Shown piece by piece: positions 3,001-12,089 of a DNA stretch of 64,000 nt. Each line of letters opens with the position of its first letter. Position 1 is the first letter of the stretch. A program made the position numbers and the translations under genes. Origin of the DNA: Planctomycetales bacterium (GTDB lineage: Bacteria; Planctomycetota; Planctomycetia; Pirellulales; Pirellulaceae); the NCBI GenBank assembly GCA_020427005.1, contig JAGQOY010000001.1:65716-129715 (forward strand). Direction: 5' to 3'. The notes under the pieces are model-generated. The model did not search any database. It saw nothing but the letters and a program-made list of their open reading frames with translations, and was not told the origin of the DNA.

Positions 3001-6000
3001 GTCTGCATCGGTCTTGCTGAAATTCCTACTCTGTGGGGTACTTTCTTGCCGAAAGGTTGTGTTTCCGGCGAGCAAATCCAATGGTTCATCGATGCAGGCA
3101 TAGATTCCGTCCGCAATTCCGAAGCAATCCACGGAGCTGTAGATGGGGCGACGCTTTTTGTTGATTTGAACTTCAACGAAGTTCAAGATTTTCTTGATCT
3201 CAACTCAAATGGTGTTCAAGATTTTGGCGAGCGATCGGAACCATCATTTGAAACCGATTATGCCGGCGCTACGCCCGTTGCCATGACTTCCGATATGGAC
3301 GCAGACCGAAATGGGCAGTTTGACGATGATGAGCTGCAACTGGTTTCGGTCGGTGGAACGGATATATCAACCGGCTACGAAATCTCCGTACCTTTGGTTG
3401 CACCTGCTAGCTTTTCAATTGTTTCGCCATTAACGACGCTTGTCGCAAAACTGGCTCGCCTTAAGGACATGAATACGGAACAGGCGATGTCACGCGTGGC
3501 GGCGGCTTTGGATTTGCCGCGAAAAGACCTGTTGAACGTGAATTTGTTGCTATTGGCGCGAAACGATGACATGCTTGCTGCGGACGCGTTTTCAAAAAGC
3601 ACTCAAGTTTACTCGACGGCACACCAAATCGCCTATTTCCTATCCGGATTTGACAATGCACCTGGAACGCAACTGCTGGGCTCATTGGCCATGCAAGACA
3701 TGGCGGAAAAAATCCGTTTTGAAGGAAGTCTGTTGGACTTATCCGATGTATTCGTCGTGCAATCTTTGATTCGAGGGACAATCTCGCGAAGTGACATCTC
3801 CGCTCCGGATAGTAGTTTGATCGCAGCCGCAGCCACCGTGATCGCAAGCTCGAATGCGATGATGGGAGCTGTTGCAGAAGCTGACGGACGAACGTATGTC
3901 GAAGAAGTTGCGCGGATTCAAAAGGTCAGCGAAGGTAGTGCAGCAGAGCGACTTCGGGCGCTTGCCGAAGGTACAGCAACAGAGCAAGCCACTGTCAATG
4001 AATTCACCGGTGATCGCCTCGCCGCCCTGGTGGATGCATCTGAAATTGGCAATGTGGTCATTCCCTACATCGTTGCCGACGATATTGCTGTCGTTGAAGG
4101 TGATCAAGGTACGCAGATAGTCATTATCAACGTCGGCATCACCGATCCGTCCAATCTGCCCGTCTCAGTCAACTACTCAACGGTGGATGTGAGTGCAACG
4201 GCAGGTAGTGACTATGGCTCCGTGACAGGAACGCTAACCTGGTCTCCAGGAGACACTACGGTACAGCAGATACAGATTCCAATCTATGGAGACAGCTTAG
4301 CTGAAACCAACGAACTGTTTCACTTACTTTTGACAGATGCTGTGAATGCCGCAACGCTTGAGACAATCTCTTTTGTTCAAATTGTAAGCGATGATCCGAT
4401 TGAAGTCGCATTGGAGGATTCAGTAGCGGTTCACGAGTTGTATTTGCGAAATGGCGAAGCAGGCCTTCAATTACTCGATAATGGCGACGCTATATTTAAA
4501 GGTAGCGTAATAGTGAATCAAGAGTTGCTGATCGAGTCAGCAGCCGATTCCCAAAGCAATCTGACTGTATCTTTTCAAACCAATGAATCTTCTCCCCGGG
4601 TAACGATCAGATATCTCGGTAATGGTGCCAACAGTTCCTTGATAATCGATCCTTCAAACGCTGCTTCAATCGAACATATCTTCTCGTCCTCACAAGAGGG
4701 TCGCTTCAATATCGATGGCCGCACAATTATCTACGAGGACATCGGCAATGTTGTCAGTCCTGTCAGCCCTGTTATCAGCGGGATTCCGACGGAGTCTTTG
4801 AGGTATGGCGATTTGCTGACGCTCGTTGGCACTCCACCGTCGTGGTTTGATTCCGGTCTCGCGACTAACGAGATATGGACTCTCACTCGTGATAGTGAAC
4901 AAGTAGCAAGTGTCGTGGGAAGTAGCCTCTCGATCAACGTCGATGCCGTTGGTGTGTACCGCATGACATATACGGCGAGTCAGGAAGGCTACCTGCCTGC
5001 GGTTGCCACCTTTGAGTTTGCTATACTCAATATCCCACCGATCGGAGCTGACGATACAGTGACCACCGACGAAGACCACTTTCTATCAGTCGCTGCCAAC
5101 AATGGTCTACTCTCCAACGATTCGGACGAAGTTCCCGGCGAGTTGCGAGTGGCTTCGATCAATGGTGTACCTGTCAACGAAGAAACTCCGTTCGGACTTG
5201 CCTCTGCGACGCAGAATAGTAGCATCGCCTATTCCACGATGAATGTGAATGCGGGCAATTACTACGGCGTTCGCTTTGAGGTGACTGAGCCCATCAACAT
5301 CGATCGTGTGGGAGCGAGTTTCGGCTACGGCTTGGGCCAAAACCCGTTCGCGGCAATCATTCGACTCGACAACGCAACCGACGTGCCGGACTCGTACGAT
5401 CTGACTTCCGATGATGTGCTCGCAAGGACCACCATCCCCGTCGCCTACAACGATAGCGGAGATCGCTTTGGCACAATGGACCTGGAGATTCAGCCAGGTT
5501 GGTACGCACTTATGGTAGGTGGTGAAGGTGATTCCAACGCGGCTTTACGACTGGACAACGTCGCGCTAACAAATCCTTCACTCTACCTGCATTCGCGTCT
5601 GGGGGTGCCAGAATACTTTTCCATTACAGCGGCGAATCCGACCAGTCGTATGCGATTCATCGTTGAAGGTTCGTCCACCGGCGGTGCTGCGACCATTCTC
5701 CTGGGTTCGGGCGCAACGGTCACCGCCAACTCCGACGGCAGCTTCAGGTACGATCCGGCGAACAGTTTTGAATATCTGAATATCAGCGAAACTGCGATGG
5801 ATCAGTTTGTATATACGATCACTGACGTCGGCGGCCTCACTGCCAACGCAACAGCTACCGTGACAGTCAACGGTGTGAATGATGCGCCCGTCGCTTCAGA
5901 TAACTCTTACTTGGTTTCCGAAGAGTCACTGATGTCTCCCGCTGCCTCCGTGGGTTTATTATCGAACGATTCCGATGTCGATAGCCAGGAATTAAGCGTC

Positions 6001-9672: not shown

Positions 9673-10539
9673 GTGTACGACCATCGACAGAAATTGGCTA
9701 CAACGTTCTGGGAAACCTTTTTCAGGGAAACAGTTAAAGTCATGCCAATTGCAGAAAAAGACTTTGATGGCGTCCACGTTAGCTTGGAGTCCTTTACTGC
9801 CGTAGAAAACCCGACTGGGGAAGGTGAGTTGGATTTTGAGGTAATCAAGGATTCAAGATTTGAAGTAAATGGACAGAATGAGTCAGGGCATTTGATAAAA
9901 ATTGCGTACTTCGGAGGCGGATCGGTTTTCGGGACAAGGGAGACGGAGCCTGCGATTAGATTTGAAGCATCCTTTTCCGTAACACCTGACGACAACCGTG
10001 ATATTAGACTAGGCTTTATTCAATTCGTGGAGCGTACTGAGCGTGTGGCTTCCTACGATGGCGGGGTCCTGTTCTATAAGCGTTCCGAGGAACGTCTGTT
10101 AGACTGTATGCCTGCTCGGGATCTTGAACGAGAAATCGCTTCCGGCAGCCAAGGTTCGGCTCTTGTAGCCCGGAGTGATTTTGGGTTGTACCCGTTCCTC
10201 GGCAAAAGCGTTCGGGCGGCGTCTGCCACGGAGACTTGGGCGACGGACAATCCCAATTGGTCAGCACCATTCAAATTTCGTGGACGGGAAATCTCGTCGT
10301 TGAAAGTTGCAGACTCCTTCACAACGTACTTTGCGGTCGATCTCGGAGGAGTCTTTCGCACACTTGCAAGAGTCAAATGGAATATTGATTATGATTACTT
10401 TCCATTCGGCGCAATTGACATTGGAAACGCCTTAGGCTTTCTCACAATTGAGGGAGTCTTGCCAGTCGACGACGAGCTGTTGGTGGATCTACCAGTTGCA
10501 AACAGCCTGAACACGCTGGGGACACATCGAACTTCTTGA
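9673..10539 (+). CDS. Hypothetical protein with possible FAM78-like fold (likely start ATG 9742)
   Basis: 288-aa open frame. Motifs GFIQ, YPFLG, DNPNWSAP, DSFTTYF and TLARVKW occur in the order I recall for FAM78; this is unverified. Confidence 0.6.
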   Translation: MYDHRQKLATTFWETFFRETVKVMPIAEKDFDGVHVSLESFTAVENPTGEGELDFEVIKDSRFEVNGQNESGHLIKIAYFGGGSVFGTRETEPAIRFEASFSVTPDDNRDIRLGFIQFVERTERVASYDGGVLFYKRSEERLLDCMPARDLEREIASGSQGSALVARSDFGLYPFLGKSVRAASATETWATDNPNWSAPFKFRGREISSLKVADSFTTYFAVDLGGVFRTLARVKWNIDYDYFPFGAIDIGNALGFLTIEGVLPVDDELLVDLPVANSLNTLGTHRTS

Positions 10540-10616
10540 AAGCGTTCGACTTGCAGAATCCCCAGGGCGCAATTGATTTGTTCACCGATTTATGAATGGA
10601 TGGTTCAGAAGAATTA

Positions 10617-10646
10617 GCGTTGGTTCGCGGAGCGAACCACGACTAT
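10617..10646 (-). repeat. REP element, family 1 (ATAGTCGTGGTTCGCTCCGCGAACCAACGC), directly after the RAYT stop codon
   Basis: Exact 30-bp copy containing the 8-bp hairpin TGGTTCGC-TCC-GCGAACCA; its first base is the last base of the RAYT TGA. Confidence 0.9.
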
Positions 10647-11104
10647 CAGTAATATCTTCGATAGAGGTACTCGCCTGGATTTAGACCGGCTTTGTCGGGA
10701 TTCGATTGGATGTACTGGCGCAAGTATTCGTACTGCTCTGGACTGCGAACGAGGTGATCGAACGGCTCCTGCTGCCAAAAGTGTTCGCAAGATCCGATCA
10801 CTCGGTTTATGCGAAATGCCGTGTAGTGCAACCAGGAATCGAATTGCTTTTCCATGCGTTCAGGTGTGTCGAATGCAGCCAGCAAGTGAACATGGTTTGG
10901 CATGATTACAAAGTCGCCCATCCGGTATCGATCGCCATCAAAGTGCAGCAGCGAATCGGCCACGATTTGAGCTAGCTCTGGTTTTTTCAGCAAGCATGCT
11001 CCGAGGCATTCATCGAGTTTCATTTCACGGCAGCGATTGAAATGAAACTCGAATGGATGCCGCTCCGCATCCGTCAGCAGCGGCAATAGCCTTGACCAAT
11101 GTTG

Positions 11105-11134
11105 ATAGTCGTGGTTCGCTCCGCGAACCAACGC
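11105..11134 (+). repeat. REP family 1 copy inside the RAYT coding sequence
   Basis: Exact 30-bp copy; read as ALVRGANHDY in the RAYT frame. Confidence 0.9.
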
Positions 11135-11220
11135 CTGTTGATTTCTGCAATCGACACTGTCTTGTGGATTTGAGTCGTTAGCATTGTGGCCTGTGGGTGA
11201 TGAACTTGGATTAGTTTCAA

Positions 11221-11249
11221 GCGTTGGCTCGCAGAGTGAACCACGAGTG
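11221..11249 (-). repeat. Degenerate REP family 1 copy inside the RAYT coding sequence, inverted partner of 11105-11134
   Basis: gcgttggctcgcagagtgaaccacgagtg versus consensus gcgttggttcgcggagcgaaccacgacta; read as TRGSLCEPTL in the RAYT frame. Confidence 0.8.
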
Positions 11250-11441
11250 CCGAGTACACGCACAATCCAAGTTTGTTTTTCGCTATCCCAGCGTGTGAGG
11301 ACTTCCTTTGGGATGGAGTCCACTGTACGAAAAGTCACAAAGACGATTGCGCCCGCTTGAGACCAGTGCGGCCGCAATCGTTCATGAACAAGGACTTCCG
11401 CTTTCGGGTCAAACAGTTCTCCAAGCACCGTTAGCCTCTTA

Positions 11442-11689
11442 ATAGTCGTGGTTCGCTCCGCGAACCAACGCTTCTTAAATCAACACTCCTCCCACGCTCC
11501 AACTCGCCGATGCTCTTCCAGTCAGGATTTCTCCGCTAATACAAACTAGTTTTTTCAAAGCGTTTGCAGTATCCAGACTGTGCGGGATGGACAGCGTTCG
11601 GGCGGTTCGCAAGGTTATAGCATACTGCAAATTGAATGCTGAGATGCAATTGTTAGGAGGCGTTGGTTCGCGGAGCGAACCACGACTAT
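11442..11689. repeat. Inverted REP doublet (REPIN-like) upstream of RAYT: arms 11442-11471 and 11660-11689
   Basis: Two exact 30-bp copies in inverted orientation, separated by a 188-nt spacer. Confidence 0.9.
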
Positions 11690-12089
11690 TTTGCACTCCA
11701 CACGAATACGCTTCCACGCTGATTTTTGACTGAGTAGCATCAACGGAAAATTAAGAGATTTCAGATTATTCGCCAAGCGAAGAATCCTTGAACAGTGAAG
11801 CAGTTAGGCTAGCTTTCTTTAGGTGTAGGTTGGCAAATTCAATGCTACTTTTAGATTCGAAACAAGCAGCAATTGGCACCAGTTCATTATGAGAGCGGTC
11901 GTCCGGATAACGACGAAATCGCTAAACGCGATCAGGACTTTGATACTGCTGGCGATGATGCGTCTAAGATTCGCCGGCTGGGCATTTGCGATTCATAGGA
12001 ATAGACATGTTGGAGTACACGGCCGAATTAAACTAAGTTAGACTACTTTTGGTGTACGAAAAAGAAGTGCGATTCTGAACAGCAGACTA

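Follow-up and report, generated by a model that had tools for sequence, protein, structure and literature searches.

In a 64,000-nucleotide stretch of the draft genome of a sludge bacterium of the Planctomycetales (hereafter the window), we found a gene for a RAYT, a domesticated transposase that cuts hairpins, whose reading frame holds two inverted REPs around an 86-nt spacer, read in frame as residues 61-108. Comparison with homologous sequences confirms this insert as real, old and clade-wide, at a fixed codon position. We consider it likely that a REPIN of the RAYT's own family entered the gene in the ancestor of the clade and has been tolerated there as a passenger, its arms homogenised with neighbouring copies.

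The RAYT gene and the REPs in and around it

The features of the locus are listed here with their coordinates in the window.

10617..10646, plus strand: 3' flanking REP, adjoining the gene, its foot overlapping the TGA stop codon
10646..11428, minus strand: RAYT (TnpA_REP-like Y1/HUH) open reading frame (ORF) of 260 aa with a GTG start, from the ORF list
11105..11134, minus strand: internal arm 2, exact REP copy whose ATAG foot is on the template strand, encoding ALVRGANHDY (residues 99-108)
11135..11220, minus strand: REPIN spacer of 86 nt, a low-complexity loop predicted to be disordered, about residues 70-98
11221..11250, plus strand: internal REP arm 1, degenerate (24/30), encoding (G)TRGSLCEPT
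11442..11471, minus strand: upstream flanking REP, exact, 13 nt before the GTG start
11660..11689, plus strand: distal upstream REP, an exact copy

The exact 30-mer GCGTTGGTTCGCGGAGCGAACCACGACTAT is present in four copies in the window, at 10617(+), 11105(-), 11442(-) and 11660(+), where shuffled sequences lead one to expect 0 matches. The RAYT gene is bracketed by inverted REPs, with exact copies at both ends, and the 3' flanking REP forms a 32-nt perfect inverted repeat with arm 2 (10617-10648 and 11103-11134). On the upstream side, the REPs at 11442-11471 and 11660-11689 make up an extragenic REPIN with a 188-nt spacer and arms of 38 nt that are 95% complementary, and a Shine-Dalgarno-like AAGAGG lies between the nearer of them and the GTG start. 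A promoter and terminator scan gave nothing above shuffles, and an Rfam search with the REP found no family.

Inside the gene, the two arms are 86% complementary around the 86-nt spacer, as in a REPIN hairpin. An earlier note on this DNA, made from the letters alone, had described one exact and one degenerate REP lying inverted within the coding sequence, and this description stands (11105-11134 exact, 11221-11250 matching at 24 of 30 positions). The junction that it gave for the protein with the doublet removed, ...WIVRVLG/QHWSRLL, is also correct, with residues 61-108 (TRGSL...ANHDY, 48 aa) encoded by 11105-11248. Its span of 11106-11249 lies one base off the codon boundaries, and its count of exactly 48 codons is obtained with the 29-nt core only; with the 30-mers the doublet measures 146 nt, and in the orthologous locus L021 122 nt, which is not a multiple of three.

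Only one of the two internal arms of the window, arm 2, is a canonical REP. In arm 1 the ATAG foot has changed to GCAC and the stem contains one mismatch and one wobble; orthologues have at this position the canonical ATAGTCGTGG..., translated as SRGSLREPT. The spacer of the window has no second copy in the genome, so that the doublet is not found here as a replicated whole. It is found as such in L073, where the internal and the downstream REPINs have their spacer in common. From its sequence, the element of the window looks partly decayed within an intact RAYT ORF.

About 18 copies of the REP were detected in the genome at six or fewer mismatches, roughly 15 of them above background. Some 13 further copies are dispersed outside the locus, and since many of these lie within 300 nt of contig ends, the REP family may be under-assembled. 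The dispersed copies begin CCGTTGG and the four exact copies at the RAYT locus begin GCGTTGG. Longer conserved flanks (aacacaaagc...ccaaacaagc) were seen around dispersed copies (contigs C41, C79, C151, C221 and C387). By sequence, the REP foot in this RAYT's family appears to be ATAG, against GT[AG]G in described RAYT REPs.

The RAYT ORF encodes NHVH at residues 178-181 (10886-10897), WQ at residues 218-219 and Y239-x3-NP (10697-10714), and the HUH, WQ and Y---NP columns are invariant in alignments of 24 and of 38 sequences. The earlier note had called the HUH and catalytic Tyr motifs intact, in agreement with H179 and H181 (10886-10894) and Tyr239 (within Y239-IQS-N243-P244), which are intact here and invariant in the family. 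The AlphaFold model has a core pLDDT of about 90, and its first Foldseek match is the REP-bound TnpA_REP of Escherichia coli (4er8_A; E 2.5e-4, probability 1.00), followed by the TnpA proteins of IS608, IS200 and ISDra2, giving a Y1 HUH fold like that of E. coli TnpA_REP. A protein search of the 7.87-Mb draft genome found the RAYT family in single copy, and the low copy number together with inverted flanking copies of a dispersed REP is what characterises a RAYT. The ORF scores 44.7 bits against the NCBIfam model REP_Tyr_transpos (NF047646; cut-off 80) and 18.9 bits against Pfam Y1_Tnp (PF01797; cut-off 23), matching only the C-terminal two thirds of the latter profile, and these scores below threshold mark it as a member of a distant RAYT subfamily. 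Many of the homologues (P0007, P0010, P0024 and others) are named 'type I restriction enzyme R subunit' by JGI, which looks like a propagated misannotation.

The AlphaFold model places the insert between a helix at residues 41-60 and a helix at residues 111-117, upstream of the HUH strand, with pLDDT below 50 for residues 69-106. Across the insert-bearing clade, the insert is predicted to be translated as a disordered loop of 37-52 aa whose sequence is nearly free to drift.

Distribution of the insert among homologues

Among 2156 homologues a length of 216 aa is typical, and the EKxxW-FNRCRE linker spans 28-31 aa in typical members versus 75 aa in the RAYT of the window. The alignment with homologues that had been proposed as a check comes out as predicted: the 216-aa proteins lack residues ~58-106. 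In 60 related genomes, the query matches in two blocks, residues 1-57 and residues 107-259, that are separated by only 4-6 codons, and these short gaps together with the 28-31-aa linkers identify the segment at residues 61-108 as extra sequence. The earlier note was right that a REPIN of the RAYT's own family is translated in frame, and most homologues lack it.

The closest homologues (P0002-P0011; 63-74% amino acid identity, 249-283 aa) have an insert at the same place, with SRGSLREPT and ALVRGANHDYQ at its ends, as the two REP orientations are translated. A full-length gene (63-74% amino acid identity) with the REP doublet at the same codon position is present in at least seven further Planctomycetota MAGs, and at least eight genes of other species, assembled independently, have the same architecture. 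In L021-L026, L036 and L073 (the last from a JGI metagenome, the other full-length orthologues from Planctomycetota MAGs), a REP(-) lies at nt ~180-210 and a REP(+) at nt ~263-329 of the gene, and REPs or REPINs are present on both flanks too. The start of arm 1 is the same to within one codon, and both arms are in the same reading frames, in all insert bearers.

In a maximum-likelihood tree from which the insert columns were left out, the 17 sequences whose linker is lengthened group on a single branch (98% SH-aLRT support); their linkers reach at least 50 aa in 15 cases and are shorter in two. Rooted on distant paralogues, the tree nests this clade among insert-free sequences, at nodes of only 80-87% support and with long outgroup branches, and the nesting indicates that the insert is derived. 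Several members of the clade (P0012-14, P0013, P0021, P0120 and P0023) have shortened inserts with arms no longer clearly recognisable and intact ORFs, and L074, the locus of P0012, retains a flanking REP. L063, which had been taken as an outgroup, belongs to the insert clade and carries a frameshift. In a 401-genome sample of the order, no further full-length copy with the insert was found.

A recent insertion private to this genome is rejected, as the insert is clade-wide and old, sits at a fixed codon position and has arms that evolve with the flanking REPs.

Evolution of the arms, the spacer and the gene

Third-codon identity among seven orthologues (L026 left out) was 0.95 in arm 2, 0.76 in arm 1, 0.39 in the spacer and 0.565 in the rest of the gene. 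Across seven to eight orthologues the value for arm 2 was 0.93-0.95, and the maximum of third-position identity over the whole gene, in windows of ten codons, falls on this arm. Closer pairs of orthologues have a dS of 0-0.24 for both arms together versus 0.34-1.7 for the rest of the gene; dN/dS in these pairs is 0.04-0.14 in the rest of the gene and 0.28-1.2 in the spacer, for which dS is not reliable, as dN/dS is not for arm 1 and arm 2. The enzyme surrounding the insert is, by these ratios, under strong purifying selection.

Spacers change in length by multiples of three only. They are homologous and gradually diverging within the subclade of L021, L023, L036 and L024, and cannot be aligned between subclades. 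Some of the length changes come from tandem duplication, seen within two of the inserts, a 12-nt unit present three times in L024 (RLPA x3; 3255-3295) and an 18-nt half-REP present three times in L026 (3180-3250), read as SRGPLL SRGPLL SRGPL, which suggests slippage at hairpins.

The internal arms do not drift but are maintained as hairpins able to fold, with the same sequence as the REPs on either side of their gene. The six REPs detected at the L025 locus all have the form GGATCGC...GCGATCC, and all REPs of L026, L069 and L073 are of the form GGACCAC...GTGGTCC. The arm upstream of the spacer in L023, L036, L038 and L068 is of an AT subtype that is found among the flanking copies as well. L023 and L036 thus have internal arms of two different subtypes, as do the arms bracketing the truncated gene of L038; arms of unlike subtype produce mismatches in the long inter-arm stem, and each arm's own hairpin is perfect. 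Five variable stem pairs are kept (5/5) in every canonical internal arm, and the stem variants differ by compensatory double or quadruple changes, with the result that the encoded peptide reads VRGAN, DRGAI or DHGVV. L073 has an internal and a downstream REPIN that are near-identical also in their spacers. What is conserved is the single REP and not the long REPIN stem, and the arms are kept at the DNA level, in step with the REP variant that flanks the gene in each genome. That the arm peptides are conserved at the protein level was considered and rejected: the synonymous sites are conserved, and the amino acids change along with non-coding flanking REPs.

G439, the genome of L026, has two REP subfamilies, a majority of GGATCGC...GCGATCC and a minority of GGACCAC...GTGGTCC, and its insert-bearing RAYT is flanked and interrupted by the minority type only. 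In G441, which has a truncated RAYT, the GGACCAC...GTGGTCC type is seen only at the RAYT locus among the matches listed. At L021:2917-2972, L023:2916-2971 and L030:2111-2166, two REPs are joined directly by their tails, without any spacer (56 nt, ATAG...CTAT).

According to the reading that we favour, a REPIN (two inverted REPs and a spacer) of the RAYT's own family would have inserted in the ancestor of this Planctomycetota RAYT clade, and its arms would since have been kept by templated exchange with neighbouring REPs, through gene conversion or RAYT-mediated strand transfer. Selection for hairpins that the RAYT can recognise may be an additional cause of arm upkeep. The insert would then be a tolerated, self-inflicted passenger and a still live member of the REP population, and not a protein domain. 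In the lineage of the window, the spacer without a second copy and the decaying arm 1 mean that exchange is not keeping both arms perfect. Two further points count against the favoured reading. Selection on arm function would give the same synonymous-site pattern, and the non-alignable spacers between subclades would also fit repeated replacement by new REPINs.

Half genes and a second REP insertion at the same linker

At five loci of the insert clade the gene is reduced to one half, broken at the internal REPs: the N-terminal part alone remains at L069 and L068, and the C-terminal part alone at L030, L038 and L047, where a REPIN and unrelated sequence stand in front of it. Aligned to the intact L073, L069 shows a deletion between the internal and the downstream REPIN, two elements with a common spacer, and its place on a 2.4-Mb contig makes it the strongest case of a half gene; most relatives are MAGs, in which joins made at repeats during assembly could account for some of the half genes. 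The frameshifted pseudogene at L063:3001-3360 derives from an insert-bearing RAYT, reading ...AESRGPLRS...LDRGAI before it goes out of frame, and has GGACCGC...GCGGTCC REPs on its flanks. With a REPIN inside it the gene is fragile, since either half can be removed by recombination or cleavage involving this element and external REPs or REPINs.

Two other interpretations of the broken and bracketed genes were rejected. A split gene with its halves complemented elsewhere does not agree with G441 (L069), which lacks the C-terminal part, or with G442-G444, which lack a matching N-terminal part. As for an invertible switch between 10617-10648 and 11103-11134, an inverted half was found at no locus or relative examined, inversion within the source population lying beyond the reach of k=31 contigs.

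A RAYT paralogue of 39% identity in a genome of the same genus (G030; L011:1441-2490) has a different palindrome, TCACGACTCGGAGAGTCGTG, flanking the gene at both ends and placed in frame at the same linker. It represents a separate, independent insertion of a REP at this site. In the insert-free clade, P0032 and P0081 have small extra inserts at the same linker, and the linker is permissive for such insertions or preferred by them.

Alternative explanations

The internal REPs may instead be a selected cis element, serving as a RAYT binding or cleavage site, as an mRNA hairpin that limits expression (by autoregulation, RNase III-type processing or attenuation), or as a protected master REP. We regard this as possible but unlikely. 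Synonymous sites of the arms are conserved where dS of the gene is saturated, the coding arms show stem-preserving covariation, and a different REP has inserted independently at the same linker in the distant paralogue L011, all as a selected element would have it. The doublet region also folds into a long hairpin, at -62.1 kcal/mol (z = -6.2) as RNA of the sense strand and at -31.3 kcal/mol (z = -4.4) as DNA, and the RNA value is a further point in favour of a selected element. However, P0012-14, P0013, P0021 and P0120 keep an intact ORF with a decayed or shortened insert, L074 doing so with a flanking REP still present. The long stem is mismatched in L023 and L036 by arms of unlike subtype (and so are the bracketing arms of L038), the sense-strand arm of the window has no ATAG foot, and a search for RNA runs found none holding the RAYT gene.

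A more specific form of selection is that the internal REPs are a self-recognition site, at which the RAYT would work on hairpins of its gene or mRNA and so throttle or switch off its expression, up to irreversible self-deletion of half the gene, and at the same time a master copy, protected from deletion, that homogenises the local REPs; we hold this to be doubtful.

Repeated REPIN insertion, once per lineage at one hot or permissive site and with no single old insertion followed by homogenisation, strikes us as improbable. It would account for the unrelated REP at the same linker of L011, for the small linker inserts of P0032 and P0081, for spacers that cannot be aligned between subclades and for the near-identity of the internal and downstream REPINs of L073. 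Against it, the insert bearers all fall on the one 98% branch, arm 1 begins at the same codon (within one) and both arms keep the same frames throughout, and the spacers of the L021/L023/L036/L024 subclade are homologous and diverge gradually.

The assembly was compared over 10500-11800 with Logan contigs of four independent activated-sludge and wastewater runs (2015-2021). The pieces 10619-11132 and 11443-11687 recur with zero differences in runs X1 and X2, and the piece 11107-11470, which covers the spacer together with the degenerate arm and the coding sequence of the N-terminal part, is unchanged in three of the four (X1, X2 and X4). These contigs are built with k=31 and break at each exact REP, as expected for that k, so that they do not confirm linkage across the exact REP at 11105-11134, for which the evidence comes from the original assembly and from other species' assemblies with an identical architecture. 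The check for an assembly artefact put forward in the earlier note thus turned out well up to the breaks at exact REPs. As to the insert-free alleles that it proposed to look for, related genomes have insert-free homologues, and no joint skipping the doublet was seen in the contigs of the four runs, which show presence only. An assembly artefact, a chance match or an ordinary protein segment resembling a REP can be dismissed, with 0 matches expected from shuffles, the spacer piece reproduced in independent runs, the same architecture in the orthologue assemblies of other species, and arm peptides whose changes from VRGAN to DRGAI to DHGVV track the non-coding flanking REPs.

Relation to described REP and RAYT systems

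The earlier note knew of no described case. Quentin, Siguier, Chandler and Fichant (2018, BMC Genomics 19:475; PMC6006769) report REPs inserted in frame within tnpA_REP genes, predominantly in subclass 2.4 and there between HuH and Y; some members described under subclasses 2.7 and 2.8 also carry a REP insertion, with no detail given on its site or conservation. Since in-frame REPs in tnpA_REP genes were published in 2018, and intragenic REPs in 2013, this kind of arrangement is already known.

Subclass 2.4 (RAYT group 4) is like the present family in that the REPs on the flanks of the gene recur within it and leave the reading frame unbroken, a feature of the RAYT of the window as well. The inserted region is in both cases variable in length and sequence, with short repeats, and forms a peripheral loop, and the 'double-foot' REPs of subclass 2.4, two REPs fused tail to tail, have their counterpart upstream of L021, L023 and L030 (PMC6006769). 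The insertion site differs: here it precedes HuH and falls in the linker that joins the first helix to the helical block after it (residues 61-108, ahead of H179). The HuH-Y distance is about 58 aa here (H181 to Y239) against a median of 88 in the subclass 2.4 described, the Y motif is YIQSNP (the motif of the window) or YIAxNP against YIxNNP, and the hosts are Planctomycetota in place of mainly Cyanobacteria and Bacteroidetes. In site, spacing and Y motif the RAYT of the window differs from subclass 2.4 as there described. Subclass 2.7 is given a median of 213 aa, the motifs [ND]HVH, WQ and YI[LR][NQ]NP, long REPs and a variable N-terminal region; the present family, with 216 aa, NHVH, WQ and YI(A/R)(Q/E/D)NP, resembles it by length and motifs, and its REP foot is ATAG where subclasses 2.7 and 2.8 have GT[AG]G.

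In the available text of the same article there is no mention of this phylum, of insertion upstream of HuH, of a full doublet, of a quantitative treatment of concerted evolution between internal and flanking REPs, or of REP-bounded half genes. To judge from that text and our sequence comparison, the case of the window extends the subclass 2.4 observation to another RAYT lineage, another phylum and another insertion site.

REPIN-RAYT systems and the E. coli REPtron (Bertels and Rainey 2011; PMC3116915) have, like the locus of the window, a single-copy RAYT flanked by inverted REPs and REPINs, a bulged REP hairpin with a 5' xTAG foot and co-evolution of RAYT and REP, and the fold matches 4ER8. 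In those systems the REPINs are extragenic (PMC3116915), whereas here one lies within the RAYT reading frame, and the REP family is very small here, with about 15 copies. Intragenic REPs in other genes were catalogued by Di Nocera et al. (2013; PMC3733652). Rickettsia RPEs and the intragenic GTAG and CGTC REPs (PMC3733652) are likewise in-frame palindromic repeats or dimers of 20-30 or more residues that are presumed to form loops. Their hosts are unrelated housekeeping genes, while the host here is the presumed mobilising enzyme, and the arms in the present family, unlike those elements, stay homogenised with flanking copies.

Significance for the RAYT family

RAYTs and REPINs serve as the principal model of 'replicators' that persist in bacterial genomes over long times and are inherited vertically. 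The finding shows a cost within such a system, in that the gene is repeatedly destroyed by breaks at its internal REPIN. If the reading of the internal REPs as a self-recognition site were true, the recurrent insertion of REPs at one linker in unrelated RAYT lineages would be adaptive and not merely permitted. The clade also forms a natural series of enzymes and hairpins, with three stem variants, TTCGC, ATCGC and ACCAC, co-varying in coding and flanking copies, decayed inserts and REP-bounded deletions. This series could be used to study RAYT specificity, the homogenisation of REPs by conversion and the effect of an intragenic REPIN on expression.
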